From: a virus
Taxonomy: Duplodnaviria > Caudoviricetes
DNA length: 64,000 nt
Reading direction: 5' to 3' (one strand)
IMG/VR virus record: IMGVR_UViG_3300031993_000004
Location: 1 to 64,000 of that record
Within the stretch, counting starts at the first letter, position 1, and every line of letters begins with the position of its first letter. Below are positions 1-55,965 of the stretch, piece after piece. The notes beneath the pieces were generated by a model that saw only the letters and a program-made list of their open reading frames with translations, had not been told where the DNA came from and made no database searches. A program made the translations under genes and the position numbers.

Positions 1-49
1 GATACTTATGGTATTTATAAAACCAATCATGGTAGTTCATAGTACTCAT
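1..49 (-). CDS. 5' end of a gene running off the window (MSTMNYHDWFYKYHKY...)
   Basis: ATG at 49 with GAAAGGAG RBS and a late-type promoter upstream. Confidence 0.6.
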   Translation of the reverse strand, partial: MSTMNYHDWFYKYHKY

Positions 50-75
50 ATGGAGCAGCTCCTTTCATTTAAAGT

Positions 76-87
76 TACAGAACCGTT
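76..87 (-). promoter_or_regulatory. putative nvRNAP (middle/late) promoter AACG-N6-TA
   Basis: AACGGTTCTGTAACTTTA, nearly identical to AACGGTTTTGTAACTTTA at 18397; resembles AR9 late consensus AACA-N6-TA. Confidence 0.55.
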
Positions 88-103
88 TGTCGTCAGTAAT
101 CAT

Positions 104-224
104 GATTTCTGTATATATATTATTATGAAGGAAGATAATATCAACCTTCAAAGAAAAATTGATTTAGGCGGTGCGAAGATCTGGCGCCGCCGCAACCTCG
201 TAAGAGGAGAAAGTGAGGACCATT
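104..224 (+). promoter_or_regulatory. early promoter (TATATATTATT) plus structured 5' leader, copy 1
   Basis: homologous to 55798-55920 (-); three hairpins then GAAAGTGAGG RBS. Confidence 0.75.
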
Positions 225-1043
225 ATGAAACGTTACACAGAAGAAGAGATTAACAATCTCTGGGTAAAATTTTCCAACGAGAAGTCTCTTAGCTGGAAAA
301 TGAGAATTCTTTCTACAGAGATCGGCGTGCCCGTGCTGATGACCAGCGAGAGCTGGTCGAGTCGGATGGAAATCCGACTCAATGAATCTGAATTTGCAAC
401 TTCAGATGTCTATGACCCCAAACACATCAGGCTTGCAATCCGTGACGAAGAAATGTTCAAACGGATATTGAGAACATTTGGAAGACTGCCACATGAAGTC
501 GTGAGGGCAGTCGATAGCGCATTCCTCGAGGAACGTGCTGATGGGATATTCGGAATCATGAAACCGATCTCGTCGGAAGAGACCGAGAAAATATTCCGTC
601 GCTGGGATCGGTACCTGAGATGGGTAGATAAGCACTACCCAAATCAGGACACAAATATCTTTTGGGAAACTGAGAAGCTCCCGAAGAACATGCTCTCGTG
701 GGGAGCAAGATATATTCTCGGTGGTATTAAACCATCGAGAATAGCGATCAAAGCAATCTCGAAAGGGATTGCTGAAATTGACCCCTCGGGTATTATTAAA
801 TACACCGAGGACAGCCACTTGTTCTCGGTGTATGATTTCACTTTGTCAGACGAAGGACGGGGACGCTATGAGTCCTTTGGCTGGTCCGCAGCAATGAGCT
901 TGTCCATCCATAAAGCCGTCGAAACGGCTTTTAGTGGCAAGGATAAGAAAGACGATGAAAACATCTTTGTTGTGAATAAAATCCCCGAGCAGTGGGAAAT
1001 TGATGCCGGTTACTATCGTGGCATCAAGAAGAAGCGTGACTAA
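225..1043 (+). CDS. hypothetical early protein
   Basis: ORF with GAAAGTGAGG RBS directly after the conserved leader. Confidence 0.8.
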   Translation: MKRYTEEEINNLWVKFSNEKSLSWKMRILSTEIGVPVLMTSESWSSRMEIRLNESEFATSDVYDPKHIRLAIRDEEMFKRILRTFGRLPHEVVRAVDSAFLEERADGIFGIMKPISSEETEKIFRRWDRYLRWVDKHYPNQDTNIFWETEKLPKNMLSWGARYILGGIKPSRIAIKAISKGIAEIDPSGIIKYTEDSHLFSVYDFTLSDEGRGRYESFGWSAAMSLSIHKAVETAFSGKDKKDDENIFVVNKIPEQWEIDAGYYRGIKKKRD

Positions 1044-1065
1044 TCTCACGCTGCTCGCAACATGA

Positions 1066-1140
1066 GTCCGGCACAGTAGCGCGTTCAGTGCGCACAGCGC
1101 CTGTGCCGGACGACACGGGGAGAAGGAGGTGTGTCCCGTG
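1066..1140 (+). ncRNA. structured 3' element / possible attenuator
   Basis: 11-bp stem GTCCGGCACAG/CTGTGCCGGAC, then CACGGG/CCCGTG stem with AAGGAGGTG in the loop. Confidence 0.4.
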
Positions 1141-1159
1141 ACAAAAAAGAAGAATGACA

Positions 1160-1198
1160 ACGGGCGGGGACACACCCCGCCCGTATCATTTTTTTTTT
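1160..1198 (+). terminator. intrinsic terminator, possibly bidirectional
   Basis: ACGGGCGGGG-ACACA-CCCCGCCCGT followed by a T-run, between convergent genes. Confidence 0.85.
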
Positions 1199-1200
1199 GA

Positions 1201-4200
1201 TTATCCGTTATATATATTATTTATCTGAGATTTGAGGTTAATCAAAACCTTGTTGGCAGCTGCAGTTAGAACAACTGACGGAATCATACGTTTCAGAATT
1301 GAACCAGCTGACACGAACATCGAGATTTCTTCATTCGGTGCGCTTTCAGCATATGGTTCCAAACCTTCCGGAACAACTTCTGAGATGACCTGCTTGGATG
1401 CTGCATACACAACACACTTATCTCCGATTGATACATCGTCACCATGTTCAATGTATATTTCAACAAGAACATCGCAACGAATACCTTTGATCGTTTGACC
1501 CGACAACGGACGCGTCGGTGCACCATACAGTGTTCCCATCTTATAGACAGAATCACTATTATCGTATCTATCCAACATTTTCCGTTTTGCGATATTCTCT
1601 TTGAAATGATTGTCAATGATCTCAAAGAGAGATGGTGACAAACGATCCAACGGGCGATTCGTGTAGATACGAATGTCTTTAACAACACCCGCATGTTTTG
1701 AACGAACAACACGTTTCGCTGTGTCCAGATTGCTACCGGCATCTCTGAATGCATTCAAGAAAGAGTCAACCGCTTTGTCACCAGTATCGCCCAATCCAAA
1801 TACAATCAACGGGTCGCCGATTTCAATTTCGTCGCCAACTTTAACGATGGATTCAATGTCGTCGGTTGCTTCCAGTTTGGATGCTTGACACATTGTAACA
1901 TGGGTTCCCAGACGTTTTGACATCTTGCTTGTCATAATGCCGGCGTCTTCATATGTCGCGTAAGTACCACAAAATGCAACCTTTGCAAGTGGACCAAGAT
2001 TCATACGAACCATCCCGGTCGAATCCTTCGAGAAGAACTTTGAATGATATGCAAGGATATCATTCTTGGAGAATTTGTCTCCCTTCTTGAAGTTTGGAAG
2101 CAGCTTGTTATCAACATAGAATCCAGAACCAGGATTGAATGAGTATCTGCTATTGACCGGAATTGCTTGACGCTTTTTGGAATCATACTGGACGACCATA
2201 TATCCGTCTGCAAGATCAATAACTTGACCATTCTCTTTTGCCATGACAGAAAATTCATCAGACAGATAAGCGGCCGCGATTTCATCCAGACCGTTTGAAA
2301 TCAAAACTGGTTGTGCGTCATCCACCGGAAGAATGTGACCAGTCTGCGACGTTGCGATTGCAGTACGAATTGCATCATCATGTGTCACAGTTCCAGGTGT
2401 CAATAACTCAGAGAACGATGCCAATTGTAAATCGTTATAATCGGCTTCAGTTGGATCATCTGCAATAGTATAGCCACGAACAGACGAAACCTTCGGATCG
2501 ATTGTCAATTGACGAACAATGCCAACATTTGCAGAGTTTGGTGTTGACATTGCCATCTTACCAGTCATAGAAGGATCAAACGAACGTTTTGCTTCTGAAT
2601 ACGCTTTCTCTTGGTTAACACCACCATATCCCTTCTTGGTGATGGTTTCCTCTTCATGCAGTTCAATCATTGGATTCAACGCAGAAGATGTAGAAACTGT
2701 TTCCGTTGCCATCAATTCATTCATGATTGCCATACGGTTGAACACGAGTTTGTTATCACGTGTTCTGGAGCCAACGCTGTTGTTATACTTCGAAATCGCA
2801 ACGGCCAAATGATAATGAATCATTGCCGGAATGATTTCAGAAGAACGGATGCGATACAATGATGAGTTGTTCTCAGATGTGAAGTTGTTATCGGCAAGCA
2901 TGTTCGCTGCATAAATCAGCATATCCGCGATGTTATTCGGAACATGATAATGCTGACAAACATCTTCTGTGATGGCATCAACGAAGAAGTGATAATATGT
3001 GATGAATGTTGTACGCTGTGAATATTGTTTGAAGAACAACTGATTGAAAATATCGACATACACGGAGTTATCATCCATAATGGTCGTTTCAAAATCAGTT
3101 GAATTGTATTGTCGTGTGTTGATGCGATAGAAACCATTGAAGATCAACTGATTCAGAACTGTGTTCTGGATTGCAAGTGTTCGATCTTTAAATGGTATCT
3201 TCAGATATCCAGGCACCTGTTCACGGGGTGCAACATATTTGTATTGTGCACCAGAACGTTTCAACAGAGAAGGAAGACCTTCCCATGCAGCGATTGCAAC
3301 GCCCAATGGAATCAGAACACCGATCTTGATGTCGGCATACATCGACAACTTGTTCGGTTTACCCTTTGCATACAACGCAGAAATATCAGACGGAAGGTTC
3401 TGTGCAATAATCTCCGTCAATGACCGACCTTTTCGGTCCAATCCGGTTTCAGTATTCAGAACGATCGGGACTTGGTTAATCATGCCACAGCAGAATTCAT
3501 TGTCATCGACGTTCACGAACCCATAGTCACGTTCACACTGGTCGCGGTTGAAGATTATCTTACAGACAAGATCCCTGTTTTCAAACATGTACCACGACTT
3601 TGCGTATTCATCATATTCAATCGTCGAGATGAATCGATTGTTCGTAACAACTGAGCTTCCGTATTGGACATATGGATTCTTACCCTTAGCGTCATTTCTC
3701 GATGCAACGGCTTTCAGCATCATCGTAATGTCGACAAGAGATTTCGTATCATAACGAGATACGGTAATCTTGTTATAATTCGATGTCAGAATGACCTTCT
3801 TCTTATTGATTTTCAGAATCGGAATCGGGAAATCCTGTTTGCCGATATTATACGTTGATCCATTATAAATGAATCTTCCGTTCTGCATGACAGGAACGAC
3901 GATGTCGATATGCGACGTTGTGCCAGAACGCTTATTCTTCAACTGCACACGCCAGTTATGCATCATAGAAATCGGAGTTGAGATATCCGTGACATCAATC
4001 TTCGTGACAACGAATCCTTCAGGAAGTTTCTGTAATGTCATGAATGTTGATACGATGTCCTGATCCATCATATTTTCCTCATATGCTTCTGCAATACGAG
4101 GGAATGATGAACCCTTTTGCGCACCTGGATTCAATGTTGTAATCCGAGATGGAATAGAAGGTGGTGGCATCGGAATGTCTGTTACTGACTTCACAGAATC

Positions 4201-5403
4201 AGTATTCAATTCCTTCAAACGAATTTGTCCAATATTGGAACGAAGTTTGTATTCACGTGCGGATGTTGTCGTTCGCATAATGGATGCTTCATTTGAAGGT
4301 GCGCGCATTGCTGCCAATGATTTTGATGTCTGATTGATGATCTGATTTTCAACCGGTTTGTCTCCACCGAGTTCCAAATCTGCAGCAATACGTTTGTAAT
4401 TTGCGAGCTTCGATTCATTTGGTGTGATCCGATGTAACAGCCGTGTATTGATATCAAGAGTCTTTGCACGATACATGTCACTCTTGTTGCTTGCTGTTGA
4501 CGATACGCCAAATTTATCTTTCAATGCCTGAATAGATGATGCCAAACCGGAACGACGTACACCGGATCCGCCTGTTGTCGCATCAGCATCACTACCGTTC
4601 TTCTCTTCTGATACATTGGCATTGATCGAATCGATCATCTCATCGACGGATTCATCATCGTCGTCTGTCGATGATGTCTTCGGTCCATTATATGGGCTGC
4701 CGATTGTTTTGCACATGGCTTTGATGGCATCCACATCAGCATTTGATGTAGATCTCAAATCCATTTTGTAGTCAGCTGTCGATGAACGGAAAATGACGGT
4801 GATATCCTGTGTAATCTTTCCGCCAGTTCCATACATATATGATCCCAACAGACCATTGATCAAATCTGCTTTGACGGGTTCATCCGTGTCATAAATCTTA
4901 TACCGGTCGGTATTGACAATCAGAATCTTCCGCTTTGCACTTGTGAACTGTTGCAACAATGTTGACAACATCTGTGGTGCATTACGGTTCATATATTCAA
5001 TCGACAACGGTCTGATGGATTGTGTCATCTGACGCATGACATCTGACAACGAGACATATACATCAGCATGTGACAATTTATTGATAGGAGGTTTGACAAC
5101 CTGAATCATTGGCGCGAGTTTCTGTTTCATCAGGTAATCAACTTTATTCCGATATTCGGACTGTGAAAGAGCATACTTTATATTCGTTGCTCCTATTTTA
5201 CTACCCAACGAATACGGAATGATAATTTTTGTGATCACCCGCGGCGGGGGTATCTTCTTGATCATTTCGACATCATATTCGAATGATCCAGAAAGCAAGA
5301 ATACCGCAACGTCTTCCGTATCTTTCGGAAGCGAGAATGGTGATGACATTGATTGCAGGTTACGACCTGTTGCAAGATCGGTTGCTTCCTGGTAAAACGG
5401 CAT
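1201..5403 (-). CDS. multisubunit RNA polymerase beta subunit, N-terminal/central part (virion RNAP, phiKZ gp178-like)
   Basis: STPNSANVGIVRQL (cf. TPEGPNIGLI), TYEDAGIM, IGDKCVVYAASKQVIS (two conserved Lys), ILKRMIP; lacks the C-terminal GGQRFGEME part; about 400-aa N-terminal extension. Confidence 0.9.
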   Translation of the reverse strand: MPFYQEATDLATGRNLQSMSSPFSLPKDTEDVAVFLLSGSFEYDVEMIKKIPPPRVITKIIIPYSLGSKIGATNIKYALSQSEYRNKVDYLMKQKLAPMIQVVKPPINKLSHADVYVSLSDVMRQMTQSIRPLSIEYMNRNAPQMLSTLLQQFTSAKRKILIVNTDRYKIYDTDEPVKADLINGLLGSYMYGTGGKITQDITVIFRSSTADYKMDLRSTSNADVDAIKAMCKTIGSPYNGPKTSSTDDDDESVDEMIDSINANVSEEKNGSDADATTGGSGVRRSGLASSIQALKDKFGVSSTASNKSDMYRAKTLDINTRLLHRITPNESKLANYKRIAADLELGGDKPVENQIINQTSKSLAAMRAPSNEASIMRTTTSAREYKLRSNIGQIRLKELNTDSVKSVTDIPMPPPSIPSRITTLNPGAQKGSSFPRIAEAYEENMMDQDIVSTFMTLQKLPEGFVVTKIDVTDISTPISMMHNWRVQLKNKRSGTTSHIDIVVPVMQNGRFIYNGSTYNIGKQDFPIPILKINKKKVILTSNYNKITVSRYDTKSLVDITMMLKAVASRNDAKGKNPYVQYGSSVVTNNRFISTIEYDEYAKSWYMFENRDLVCKIIFNRDQCERDYGFVNVDDNEFCCGMINQVPIVLNTETGLDRKGRSLTEIIAQNLPSDISALYAKGKPNKLSMYADIKIGVLIPLGVAIAAWEGLPSLLKRSGAQYKYVAPREQVPGYLKIPFKDRTLAIQNTVLNQLIFNGFYRINTRQYNSTDFETTIMDDNSVYVDIFNQLFFKQYSQRTTFITYYHFFVDAITEDVCQHYHVPNNIADMLIYAANMLADNNFTSENNSSLYRIRSSEIIPAMIHYHLAVAISKYNNSVGSRTRDNKLVFNRMAIMNELMATETVSTSSALNPMIELHEEETITKKGYGGVNQEKAYSEAKRSFDPSMTGKMAMSTPNSANVGIVRQLTIDPKVSSVRGYTIADDPTEADYNDLQLASFSELLTPGTVTHDDAIRTAIATSQTGHILPVDDAQPVLISNGLDEIAAAYLSDEFSVMAKENGQVIDLADGYMVVQYDSKKRQAIPVNSRYSFNPGSGFYVDNKLLPNFKKGDKFSKNDILAYHSKFFSKDSTGMVRMNLGPLAKVAFCGTYATYEDAGIMTSKMSKRLGTHVTMCQASKLEATDDIESIVKVGDEIEIGDPLIVFGLGDTGDKAVDSFLNAFRDAGSNLDTAKRVVRSKHAGVVKDIRIYTNRPLDRLSPSLFEIIDNHFKENIAKRKMLDRYDNSDSVYKMGTLYGAPTRPLSGQTIKGIRCDVLVEIYIEHGDDVSIGDKCVVYAASKQVISEVVPEGLEPYAESAPNEEISMFVSAGSILKRMIPSVVLTAAANKVLINLKSQINNIYNG

Positions 5404-6613: not shown

Positions 6614-6977
6614 TTGTTGTATCCTCCGTATCAACATAATGTGCTTTTGCCGATTCAATACGAATGTAGTCCGTCTTGTCATTTTCGTTTGTTTCCCAGC
6701 ATTTCCGGAATTCATCAATAAATTTTGTCAAACATTCCGGCGAGCAAACATCATGTACTTCGATTGATTCAATCGATTCCGCACCCCATGCGTCATGTCC
6801 TGTTGTAACACTGAGATATTTCTCGCGGTTTTTGATGCGTTTACCGCACGTGTCACATGTGATTCCTGTTACGATCTTTTTCTCCAATGCAGGTGTGTCT
6901 GGATGCGTCTTCTTCCAAATATCAAACTCGGCATGAGACATATACACCTGCTTGATTGTAATTTCCATCTGAGACAT
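6600..6977 (-). CDS. zinc-finger-containing hypothetical early protein
   Basis: CDTC...DVCSPEC; GAAAGGAGG RBS. Confidence 0.75.
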   Translation of the reverse strand: MSQMEITIKQVYMSHAEFDIWKKTHPDTPALEKKIVTGITCDTCGKRIKNREKYLSVTTGHDAWGAESIESIEVHDVCSPECLTKFIDEFRKCWETNENDKTDYIRIESAKAHYVDTEDTTNDDS

Positions 6978-6997
6978 AAACGTCCCTCCTTTCGCGG

Positions 6998-7020
6998 AAA
7001 TAATATAAATATATGAAATA
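6998..7020 (-). promoter_or_regulatory. putative early (virion RNAP) promoter
   Basis: ATATTTATATTATTT between a terminator and an RBS. Confidence 0.55.
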
Positions 7021-7023
7021 TAA

Positions 7024-7056
7024 AAAAATATCGTATGGGGGCCGAAGCCCCCATAC
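7024..7056 (-). terminator. intrinsic terminator
   Basis: TATGGGGGC-TTCG-GCCCCCATA followed by a T-run on the minus strand. Confidence 0.8.
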
Positions 7057-10800: not shown

Positions 10801-11196
10801 CCGCTCTGAGAATGCATCATCCGGTTCACGCATGAACTGTGTTGTCGTTGCAACGGCTTCCTGATAGAAGTCATCGACAGTCTTCATGGTGGTGTAATCA
10901 TCCATTTCCTGGACAGTAGCATCGCCGGGAACATTGGTGAGACGACCAGACATGAGATCGACTTCAACAGATGTGATCTCAACGTCATCCTCAAGCGGAA
11001 TGTCGATCTTCGTGAACGGGCGGTCACTGCCTGCTTCTGTGCCCGCCATGCTCAGGTCATCGAGCTCTTGGAACAGATGTGCACATTCCAACACAGCGTC
11101 GGTCATTTGTGCTTCTTCTTGAACAGCTTCGAATGCTTGTGCTGCTTTGGCTTCATTCGCACGAGATTCAAGCTGCTGTCTGATATATCCAAGCAT
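7846..11196 (-). CDS. large putative internal head polyprotein with two C-terminal SUKH (SMI1/KNR4)-like domains
   Basis: about ten hydrophobic-Q-E motifs; long D/E/P/A linker; LEKMTGSIPTDLRAYL...TTFDEM and IEAWLGRKLPSEFVTVF...GTFDEYV; AAAGGAG RBS before ATG 11196. Confidence 0.7.
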   Translation of the reverse strand: MLGYIRQQLESRANEAKAAQAFEAVQEEAQMTDAVLECAHLFQELDDLSMAGTEAGSDRPFTKIDIPLEDDVEITSVEVDLMSGRLTNVPGDATVQEMDDYTTMKTVDDFYQEAVATTTQFMREPDDAFSERCRGIAQEKFAAYKKYCIQEGFYGFDHIDMTDDRVPSRFIMECGQLNGNSLSAKLGIEFQTDKNDQILKKQLDSVTAFKEEGQQTIQEAVFEKFGKQVGATSAEDIWSFITPTKMIVPTDPGDHLCVTIECEIDGTSDVVYVGWSKLSRGGDAVVSEMDISAVRGLDCMQKGDALRAKAAREKTPYRRPSRFVQEAIDFGNPDEAPAANPDAPAVSFDAPPPDGAPADPNATPPVDGAAPDAAAPPIEGDPTAEAPADGTENKEIVDTNNVSDQIAEKVADETQNDANAENDVNIDGVDADLGGDEAAPTEADLDAEIGDAGSEEAPMDEPPATSDLDFDNMSMDEILAQAQEKIKGMPMDQLKEFLQNADTNVQPPIDSDVPPADGAAPSVEQEAFFLTRGNINKELDIHLRKALGILNSSDMDIEKICSEFRKEGWKLNRVVHHASTMKNVFNETERKQLLKLNHCLSDLSKMLRADIDPGSIMTVKRMIQAFVSEASGVLMVVEQKMGKPVQEQTVFGVGPVSDSRGYDIPIKCPDKMSRDQVLIIQALFSPAVGSGAKDSILRKIVYPYCLDNGLRQNALNKLYEYMTGEKTDNADEAELQDNFEHYEYYLEFLYPPASGEIVSDTKAYITFDSDCSHIKNLKDTKRPAGYVQLKVEVSIDGGEFSARLVSPHQSNSFDILTLDMNDLGEWYDTSKNRSQFVTVQEGFFSKIGDAMAGRTVSKLEKMTGSIPTDLRAYLTKGYRDGYKWRGKFLSVDGKIFIITHVVTPKSVLKSGVPVDMGEGMTIMSANIPLFKCSDDGYIFYNFASNAYLFSNKPNDRHQLGTTFDEMSAKLSTPASDNVDYIEAWLGRKLPSEFVTVFKSKEYQTLAKAGEFDLKDEDGYETSYYFADAQTVAQYTRSDDDEMYTDGEIVFGIIQHDDALLYHKNSVYVYDTTGNKHFDGTFDEYVKSMYQRYVDEEGSVQEGFFDKNPQTDERSKA
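7886..8684. repeat. 19-nt direct repeats AAGAAACCTTCTTGAACAG at 7886-7904 and 8666-8684
   Basis: identical sequence 780 nt apart, both encoding VQEGF on the minus strand. Confidence 0.9.
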
Positions 11197-35692: not shown

Positions 35693-35724
35693 AAAATGGG
35701 GGCGAAAGCCCCCATTTTTTTTTT
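35692..35724 (+). terminator. intrinsic terminator
   Basis: AAAAATGGGGGC-GAAA-GCCCCCATTTTTTTTT. Confidence 0.88.
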
Positions 35725-35731
35725 ACATCTT

Positions 35732-35747
35732 AAATGTATATTATTAT
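35732..35747 (+). promoter_or_regulatory. putative early promoter
   Basis: ATGTATATTATTAT directly before GAAAGGAGG. Confidence 0.6.
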
Positions 35748-35766
35748 CTCGAAAGGAGGCTCGCTT

Positions 35767-36327
35767 ATGAGTAAACTGAAATTGATGGAACGTCCCGAAG
35801 CCCGCCCGCAAGATGATGACAATCCAGCACATATCGTCTCAATGCTGTGCTACAACACGGAGGTGTGTCCACATTGCGGAAATGGTGGAAAGTTCATCGA
35901 AACAATTGAGGCGTCTCGTAAGGTAAAAACATATGGTTGCATTGTCCATGTTGATCAAGCATTCTTTAAAGGGAGATGCACGATGTGTGGACAAGTATGG
36001 ATCGAGACAGCTTACATCCCTGGCACACTGCGATTGAGTCTGACAACATTGAAGTTCATATGTAATAAGATAACATCTGTGGTTTGGTCTGCTATTAAAG
36101 TTGGATTTAATTTCTTCGTAAACCATATTCTCGCAAAAGTCATATACGGTATTGTACTATGGCTTGTCGTGAAGGGTGTTCGCGCATACGAATACTCGGA
36201 AGGAGAAAGTAATTTTAAAGAGATGCTAGCGGTATTTGGAATATTCTTAGTTCTTTTTCAAGCAGGATGGTATATTGCGCAAATAATATCGTTTTGCAAT
36301 AAAGTGAGGAGGAAGTTCTTTGAGTAA
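35767..36327 (+). CDS. zinc-ribbon plus TM protein
   Basis: CPHC...CTMCGQVW then hydrophobic helices. Confidence 0.75.
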   Translation: MSKLKLMERPEARPQDDDNPAHIVSMLCYNTEVCPHCGNGGKFIETIEASRKVKTYGCIVHVDQAFFKGRCTMCGQVWIETAYIPGTLRLSLTTLKFICNKITSVVWSAIKVGFNFFVNHILAKVIYGIVLWLVVKGVRAYEYSEGESNFKEMLAVFGIFLVLFQAGWYIAQIISFCNKVRRKFFE

Positions 36328-55492: not shown

Positions 55493-55797
55493 TTGAAATC
55501 ACGCTCCCATCCTCCAACATAACTGAGGAGATGCTCCAAGTCCTTGAGCTTCTTCTCATGCTCATTGAGCATTGACACAAGGTCGAAATAATTTTCGGTA
55601 CAATCTGTCAATTCGTAGACTGCCTTTCGGCAGGCCATATCCGCTTTATCAACGGATGCGAACCTCCCGAGTACAGCTTTCGCTGTGTCAATAAATTCCC
55701 GCTCAATGCTCATCGCCATGTTGAGTTTTCCGGCAAGATTACGGGCATCGTGCCGGATGGACTCTTCGAGTCCTCTGATTTCATTTATGCTTGCCAT
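55489..55797 (-). CDS. hypothetical early coiled-coil protein
   Basis: ATG 55797 after the conserved leader RBS. Confidence 0.75.
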   Translation of the reverse strand: MASINEIRGLEESIRHDARNLAGKLNMAMSIEREFIDTAKAVLGRFASVDKADMACRKAVYELTDCTENYFDLVSMLNEHEKKLKDLEHLLSYVGGWERDFK

Positions 55798-55920
55798 AGT
55801 GGTCCTCACTTTCTGCTCCGATAGGAGCTCGCGACGGCGTTTGATCATTACGCCGTCTATGTTTGTATTCTGAAGGTTGATATTATCTTCCTTCATAATA
55901 ATAATATATATACAGAAATC
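55798..55920 (-). promoter_or_regulatory. early promoter plus structured 5' leader, copy 2
   Basis: homologous to 104-224. Confidence 0.75.
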
Positions 55921-55931
55921 GTGTTTCTAAG

Positions 55932-55965
55932 AAAAAACGAATTGGGTGGGGCTTGCCCCACCCAT
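55932..55965 (-). terminator. terminator-like hairpin after ligase
   Basis: TGGGTGGGG-CAAG-CCCCACCCA then T-run. Confidence 0.75.

Follow-up and report, generated by a model that had tools for sequence, protein, structure and literature searches.

The mRNA of phage T7 gene 10, which is made from a phage-polymerase promoter, carries a 5' stem-loop; the retroviral DIS and the dimerisation loop of oskar mRNA are kissing-loop hairpins; and in phage N4 the promoter hairpins are found upstream of +1 and are used by a single-subunit polymerase. Stem-loops at the very 5' end are well-known mRNA stabilisers in E. coli and B. subtilis, and RppH purified from B. subtilis requires two or more unpaired 5' bases (PMC3997798). 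The ompA and papA leaders of E. coli and the aprE leader of B. subtilis begin with a stem, placed directly at the 5' end or no more than 1-2 bases from it, and lead into a strong ribosome-binding site, a geometry known to block 5'-end-dependent decay (PMC3997798). For Bacillus phage AR9, 41 early promoters used by the virion polymerase have been mapped by dRNA-seq and primer extension (PMC5312081), with the consensus AAATATATATTAT-N6-G+1 (Lavysh et al. 2017, PMC5312081). Small RNAs derived from leaders have been reported in phiKZ and 201phi2-1 (PMC10914365, PMC11512511).

Here we describe a leader with likenesses to several of these systems in an uncultured jumbo phage represented by a virus record of 277,583 bp (43.5% G+C); the window that we analysed is the first 64 kb of that record. 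The window has exactly two instances of the 22-mer GATTTCTGTATATATATTATTA, one at 104-125 (+) and the other at 55920-55899 (-), versus none in shuffled sequence, and a 25-nt hairpin, TGAAGG..CCTTCA, lies at 126-150 (+) and 55895-55871 (-). A sequence-only reading of the window had pointed out the shared 22-mer, the identical hairpin, an A-rich spacer and AGAAAGTGAGGACCAYTATG, together with two further hairpins, 2 and 3, whose stems differ between the copies; we read all of these as it described them, hairpins 2 and 3 in both window copies (Table 1). We propose that each copy would be a self-contained early expression cassette of a phage with phiKZ/AR9-type multisubunit RNA polymerases. On balance, we think it fairly probable that this duplicated cassette uses a 5'-terminal hairpin to shield its mRNA from 5'-end-dependent decay, where the start site, the early timing and the stabilising function are all predictions; the motifs, folds, covariation, hairpin register, copy number and mosaicism are established from the sequences.

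Table 1. Features of the two window copies and of neighbouring elements, in window positions; promoters, start sites and functions are predicted.
Feature	Position	Strand	Remarks
Copy 1 early promoter	98..125	+	upstream element AATC..GATTTC; core TATATATTAT at 114-123; matrix score 31.6 bits
Copy 1 hairpin 1 (GAAGG-AA-GAU-aau-AUC-AA-CCUUC)	127..149	+	G127 = predicted +1
Copy 1 A/U-rich single-stranded spacer	150..166	+	unpaired in minimum-free-energy and centroid folds
Copy 1 hairpin 2	167..191	+	8-bp G+C-rich stem; 9-nt loop GA-AGATCT-G; palindrome 177-182
Copy 1 hairpin 3 (CCUC-GUAA-GAGG)	196..207	+	ends 1 nt ahead of ribosome-binding block
Copy 1 AGAAAGTGAGGA extended Shine-Dalgarno block (208-219) and ATG (225-227)	208..227	+	
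Gene behind copy 1: 272-aa protein, family not assigned	225-1043	+	no PHROG or Pfam match
Intrinsic terminator of NAD-dependent DNA ligase gene	55943..55964	-	just upstream of copy 2; T-run to ~55932
Copy 2 early promoter	55899..55926	-	core TATATATTAT at 55910-55901
Copy 2 hairpin 1	55872..55894	-	G55894 = predicted +1 (core, N6, G)
Copy 2 hairpin 2 (GACGGCGU / ACGCCGUC)	55833..55857	-	loop AA-UGAUCA-A; palindrome 55847-55842
Copy 2 hairpin 3 (GCUCC-UAUC-GGAGC)	55815..55828	-	
Copy 2 AGAAAGTGAGGA block (55814-55803) and ATG (55797-55795)	55795..55814	-	
Gene behind copy 2: 102-aa protein, family not assigned	55797-55489	-	
Further early promoter (54807-54780), predicted +1 G54775	54731..54807	-	short leader; hairpin GACC-UGUAAU-GGUC ends 1 nt before GAAAGTGAGGA, then ATG
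RNA polymerase beta subunit gene, phiKZ/AR9-type	1201-5403	-	1400-aa beta-like protein; phrog_3148 match, E 4e-139

Outside the window, a third full copy lies at genome 240633-240517 (-), and a partial copy with a C-C mismatch in hairpin 2 and without hairpin 3 lies at genome 66196-66307 (+). One further copy of the cassette is found in the closest relative phage, bringing the total to five, four here and one in the relative. A match at 277465, near the genome end, was rejected as a new copy because it is copy 1 again: the record closes with 244 bases (genome 277340-277583) that repeat window 1-244 except for one extra TTA, so that its two ends overlap. This TTA falls in the run between the promoter core and +1 of copy 1, and the difference between the record ends could come from a slip in assembly, from variation in the population or from terminal repeats that truly differ. 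A search of GenBank phages with window 1-3000 for near-identical DNA gave no match.

The conserved AT-rich block

The conserved first block had been read as part of the fold, and this did not hold up: the shared 22-mer is probably not RNA but an early promoter of the AR9 type, recognised by the virion-packaged RNA polymerase. The block reads cATATATATATTAT-TATTAT-G, and comparison with AR9 Table S2 reveals the same layout as in the AR9 early promoter, with the AT-rich core, the six-base spacer and the G at the start all shared. A genome scan with a weight matrix derived from the block gives 21 strong sites versus 0-2 in shuffles, and these sites lie mostly in intergenic gaps, often right after terminators. 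The base after N6 is a G in 22 of 23 sites, at a position that was left out of the matrix scoring. There is no conserved -35 hexamer; upstream of the core we find instead the element ATTC..ATTTC, a conserved addition that distinguishes this phage from AR9 and PBS1. Dozens of promoter copies per genome before early operons, and the related multisubunit polymerases that are encoded, are further points of likeness to those phages.

By tblastn, the nearest relatives of the RNA polymerase beta protein are found in Staphylococcus, Listeria and Bacillus PBS1/AR9-type jumbo phages at only about 30% identity, and the phiKZ/AR9-type assignment of the polymerase is that of the beta subunit. The same promoter is present in two IMG/VR relatives, UViG_3300033463_000004 and _000005, whose beta proteins are 84% and 62% identical to that of this phage. 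By homology with AR9, whose early transcription resists rifampicin and needs no newly made protein, transcription would start at the G after N6, and the transcripts would be made early in infection. The type of ribosome site, together with the phage relatives, suggests that the host may be a Firmicute.

Judged by motif matches, this type of promoter reaches far beyond the cultured AR9/PBS1 group. It was seen on many uncultured phage contigs (IMG/VR loci L055-L134); jumbo contigs of 160-295 kb with 2-5 exact matches to the promoter include 3300045988_139370, 3300047567_000025 and 3300031993_000012.

The late-type motif of this phage, AACG-N6-TA, is also similar to that of AR9 (AACA-N6-TA/G), and one such promoter lies at window 76-87 (-), oriented away from copy 1. 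Genome-wide, the true late-type sites have the form AAACG-N5-GTA-ac-ttt; a short open leader and GAAAGGAGG come after it, and there is no hairpin at the 5' end. At two early-type promoters, 35719-35770 (+) and 6975-7025 (-), the transcripts would begin with GAAAGGAGG, placing the Shine-Dalgarno sequence at +2 with no hairpin; here ribosome binding may be a second way of shielding the 5' end. Another early promoter, at genome 85693-85830 (+), lies directly 3' of a tRNA gene. The 5' arm of its transcript is the same as that of hairpin 1 (GAAGGAAGAUAA), and the transcript folds differently, as AAGGAAGAU-aac-AUCUUCCUU, before entering a G+C-rich stretch with no obvious ribosome site; this transcript may be a non-coding RNA. 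Finally, a promoter-like site at genome 114935-115010 (+) is followed immediately by a strong G+C hairpin with a T-run, GATTAGGCGGTGATG, and a GTG start, an arrangement that is kept in a relative (G001) at ~10958-11040 (+) and that looks like a promoter-proximal terminator or attenuator.

A stem-loop at the predicted transcription start

In copy 2, the start predicted from the AR9 spacing is the first paired base of GAAGG..CCUUC. In copy 1, the TTA run is 3 nt shorter, so that strict N6 spacing would put +1 at G130 rather than G127, three bases into the stem, and destroy hairpin 1; the terminal duplicate of copy 1 at genome 277.4 kb has the full core-to-G spacing. Hairpin 1 had been treated as special to this leader, and it turns out to be one case of a general rule for the early transcripts of the group. 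In this genome, 14 of the 21 predicted early transcripts have a stem-loop at +1 or +2, versus 8.5% of random GAA sites (p 7e-11). Across 65 promoters from this phage and the two relatives, stems sit exactly at the predicted +1 in 48%, compared to 28% at +2 and 3-15% at most other offsets. On other IMG/VR contigs, a +1 hairpin is found at 16 of 23 sites with promoter context versus 7 of 42 sites without it (Fisher p 3e-5), the latter being chance-like matches that lack the upstream context of the promoter. About one third of early promoters have no clear +1 hairpin, and the exact combination of promoter and hairpin 1 was searched for in IMG/VR and not found. In the parts of the jumbo-phage transcriptome literature available to us, AT-rich early promoters and leader-derived small RNAs are reported, and a rule of this kind is not described.

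The stem sequences of the +1 hairpins vary between sites; the conserved sequence GAA(U/G)A, with which the transcripts would begin, makes up the 5' arm. Many of the hairpins are built in two tiers: an outer stem of GAAUA/UAUUC or GAAGR/YCUUC leads through a 2x2 A-rich internal loop to an inner stem. The G-U pairs in these hairpins favour the sense strand (24 versus 11), which argues for a fold at the RNA level; the sense fold is also the more stable in 25 cases versus 11 (p 0.027).

In contrast to this phage, where most early leaders begin with a +1 hairpin, the early leaders of AR9 are short and unstructured, and its 39 mapped early starts show no enrichment of 5' hairpins (5% versus 12% in controls). 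The late-type promoters of this phage (AAACG-N5-GTA) likewise have no +1 hairpin, and their leaders are short and open. Given that AR9 starts are not enriched in such hairpins, the hairpin is not required by the polymerase family and is an early-transcript trait of this clade; any benefit must then be clade- or host-specific.

If the transcript starts at the G of TGAAGG, hairpin 1 would be a 5'-terminal stem-loop with zero unpaired 5' bases. Such a structure most likely protects the long early leader from 5'-end-dependent decay, blocking RppH-type pyrophosphate removal and then entry by RNase J1 or RNase E/Y. Among the roles suggested by the sequence-only reading, a stabiliser of the 5' end, a protein-binding switch or a translation enhancer, the first fits best, since the predicted +1 is the first base of the hairpin, and the start would not fall downstream of the hairpins. 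Early leaders are long, at 50-120 nt, where late ones have 15-25 nt. Together with the sharp +1 register and the strong ribosome site, this length would fit protection of early mRNA at a time when the host decay enzymes are fully active. The geometry is that of the ompA, papA and aprE leaders. Unlike in those cases, the stem-loop here is near-systematic for one temporal promoter class across a phage clade, the two-tier stem is frequent and the stabilising function is a prediction. A search of the three phages for a Nudix/RppH-like gene found none, so phage-driven 5'-end decay is unsupported by that search.

Could hairpin 1 serve transcription instead, as a nascent hairpin that aids promoter clearance or release of the RNA-DNA hybrid, or as a DNA promoter element like those of N4? 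Its tie to the early virion-polymerase promoter and absence from late-type promoters would be explained by such a role, as would the coincidence of its 5' edge with the predicted +1 and the match between its 5' arm and the conserved initial sequence. We consider it unlikely, however, because AR9 has the same promoter type and mapped starts but lacks such hairpins, because the stem sequences vary by promoter, and, for a DNA element, because the sense-strand G-U pairs favour a fold in RNA. N4 hairpins, moreover, are upstream of +1 and work with a single-subunit enzyme. The hairpin here differs in lying downstream of the conserved block, from the predicted +1 onwards, in being variable in sequence and in going with a multisubunit polymerase, when set against the N4 promoter hairpin (PMC4496689).

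Hairpins 2 and 3 and the ribosome site

After hairpin 1 in the proposed cassette come the A/U-rich spacer, the G+C-rich hairpin 2 and then hairpin 3, one base ahead of the ribosome site. From the predicted start to the ATG, RNAfold predicts these three hairpins and no others in either copy, and against dinucleotide shuffles the folds reach z-scores of -3.8 and -5.2. Between copies 1 and 2, hairpin 2 shows two double changes and one U-G to C-G change, and hairpin 3 shows one flipped pair. The earlier claim of full compensatory covariation was too strong for two copies; some paired changes are there, but hairpin 1 is identical in both.

The additional copies do covary. When a covariance model that spans hairpins 2 and 3 and the ribosome site is run over the full genome, it recovers copies 1 and 2, the full copy at 240.6 kb and the partial copy at 66.2 kb and nothing else; in the closest relative it recovers one copy. 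In a structure-aware alignment of the five copies, which was fitted to the covariance model and leans towards structure, 96.4% of cells are paired and 6 of the 12 stem pairs change on both sides. This level of double changes is reached by 0 of 500 shuffles, and slid controls have 27-64% of cells paired and at most one double-changed pair. A plain MAFFT alignment of four copies has 95.5% paired, with four double changes. Three G-U pairs lie within hairpin 2 stems. These results agree with the earlier reading of a cis-acting 5' leader of early genes whose structure is conserved with covariation.

Across the three phages, the stem of hairpin 3 comes in four versions (CCUC/GAGG, GCUCC/GGAGC, CCCGC/GCGGG and GGUCUC/GAGACC), and the hairpin always ends one base before GAAAG(U)GAGGA. 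The AGAAAGTGAGGA block that follows is not confined to the leader and is present at 11 sites in the genome, some of them inside operons. It is complementary, with one bulged U, to the 3' tail of Bacillus-type 16S rRNA, 3'-UCUUUCCUCC-5', and because of this complementarity we read the AGAAAG(U)GAGGA block as an extended Shine-Dalgarno sequence. Hairpin 3 probably keeps the ribosome site exposed and provides a second barrier. We rejected hairpin 3 as an anti-Shine-Dalgarno switch, since complementarity of the 5' arm to the ribosome site is limited to copies 1 and 3 and is missing in copy 2 and the relative. An upstream open reading frame that would use the ATG within TTATGAAGG was rejected too, since the G of this codon is itself the predicted +1 and the frames are not the same in the different copies.

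Nine more jumbo contigs that share the promoter gave nothing convincing with the covariance model (best E 0.003), and the pattern from the 3' arm of hairpin 2 to the ribosome site, when searched in IMG/VR and a metagenome collection, returned only the one copy in the relative. The leader had been proposed to be undescribed, and a comparison of the window and 17 relative loci with Rfam gave no match at or above a family's gathering score. The best sub-threshold match of both copies is RF02948 (cow-rumen-4), at 75-138 (+) and 55881-55930 (-), which we rejected at 18.4 and 20.1 bits versus a gathering score of 48.5. This family resembles our locus in having an AT-rich conserved stretch and then a hairpin, but the match spans the promoter block rather than the three hairpins, and no relative locus is at threshold. 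The RF02948 motif might itself be the promoter-plus-leader of related rumen phages.

In the loop of hairpin 2, GATC had been put forward as the invariant; across the five copies, what is constant is a 6-nt palindrome at loop positions 3-8. All five loops are 9 nt long, with two purines, the palindrome and one purine (GA-AGATCT-G, AA-AGATCT-G, AA-TGATCA-A, AG-AAGCTT-A and AA-AAGCTT-A). The 15 of 15 palindrome cells that are complementary, and the three position pairs that all covary, represent only three independent variants, AGATCT, TGATCA and AAGCTT. None of 500 shuffles reaches the loop covariation score, and slid controls stand at 7-50%. Neighbouring bases of a loop are unable to pair with each other in the same hairpin, so the self-complementarity would have to be intermolecular or a feature of the DNA. 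A DNA feature is a weak reading because no single palindrome is shared, the centre of each lies half a base away from the axis of the stem, and the hexamers are neither avoided nor enriched; restriction-site avoidance was discarded as the cause of the palindromes on the same ground, that these hexamers are not avoided. Genome-wide, other hairpins with a stem and a 9-nt loop carrying a palindrome at positions 3-8 are at chance level (33 versus 32 expected), and the few genome hairpins with identical loops lie in coding DNA.

The retroviral DIS has the same design: a stem of some 8 bp closes a 9-nt loop in which two purines precede and one purine follows a 6-nt self-complementary core, and this core varies yet stays self-complementary. 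The differences are that the hairpin here is in a phage mRNA leader, that its cores are A/U-richer (two G-C pairs of six), that there are five copies and that dimerisation is a prediction. We raise as a tentative and rather doubtful possibility that hairpin 2 is a DIS-like kissing loop through which early mRNAs pair via the palindrome. By nearest-neighbour estimate, the 6-bp loop-loop duplex would be modest in strength, at -6.3 to -7.2 kcal/mol. Its partners would be molecules of the same mRNA or leaders with the same palindrome, such as copy 1 with the 66-kb copy. If this is true, RNA dimers could alter stability or translation, or could form a long coaxial helix for a double-strand RNase.

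The conservation of structure before unrelated genes could also mean that the leader is an RNA in its own right, either a three-hairpin segment of ~95 nt that is cleaved off or a decoy or sponge acting in trans, with hairpin 2 as its binding or pairing module. The A/U-rich spacer would suit endonuclease entry, and phiKZ and 201phi2-1 offer a precedent in their leader-derived small RNAs (PMC10914365, PMC11512511). We regard this as very unlikely, however, given that there is no terminator between the leader and the gene, that the ribosome site comes directly after hairpin 3, and that a search of the three genomes found no trans RNA complementary to the AGAAAGTGAGGA block. Least credible, and in our view dismissible, is a host-polymerase promoter with operators, in which the block is a sigma-A/sigma-70 -10 and the inverted repeats bind dimeric regulators: the TATTAT-like hexamers in the block, a weak 9/12 sigma-70-type match at copy 2 and the 6-bp palindromes of hairpin 2 are what it could claim, but there is no conserved -35, the ATTC..ATTTC element lies upstream, copy 1 has no sigma-70 match on the + strand, the inverted repeats differ per promoter with three palindromes that one regulator cannot all read, the palindrome axis is offset from the stem axis by half a base, and the three G-U pairs of hairpin 2 are mismatches in DNA.

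Portability of the cassette and its meaning for the clade

The proteins behind the two window copies are unrelated by BLASTP. More broadly, the four genes behind the copies are mutually unrelated, with no homologue in either relative and no Pfam or PHROG family, and the 272-aa protein downstream of copy 1 had no match in IMG/VR. The copies themselves are mosaic. Copy 1 equals copy 2 over the promoter and hairpin 1 and the copy at 240.6 kb over the stretch that opens with the spacer and closes with the ATG; the copy in the relative combines the stem of copy 2 with the loop of the 240.6-kb copy. This mosaic pattern before unrelated genes suggests recombination between cassettes, which agrees with the earlier idea of a recombination module, and the cassette would have been copied and recombined before unrelated, fast-evolving early genes.

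With these results, the range of the AR9-type early promoter comes to include a distant clade of uncultured jumbo phages, in which early genes would be predictable from sequence alone. The cassette is a compact and portable module of promoter, leader and ribosome site that could be tried as an expression part. Unlike those of AR9, most early transcripts of the clade seem built to start inside a hairpin, making them a natural test case for 5'-end structure protecting phage mRNA in the first minutes of infection. If the palindromic loop of hairpin 2 truly mediates RNA-RNA pairing, it would be an unusual mechanism for bacterial or phage mRNAs and, together with the +1 hairpin, would mean that this clade marks and organises the transcripts of its virion polymerase by RNA structure.
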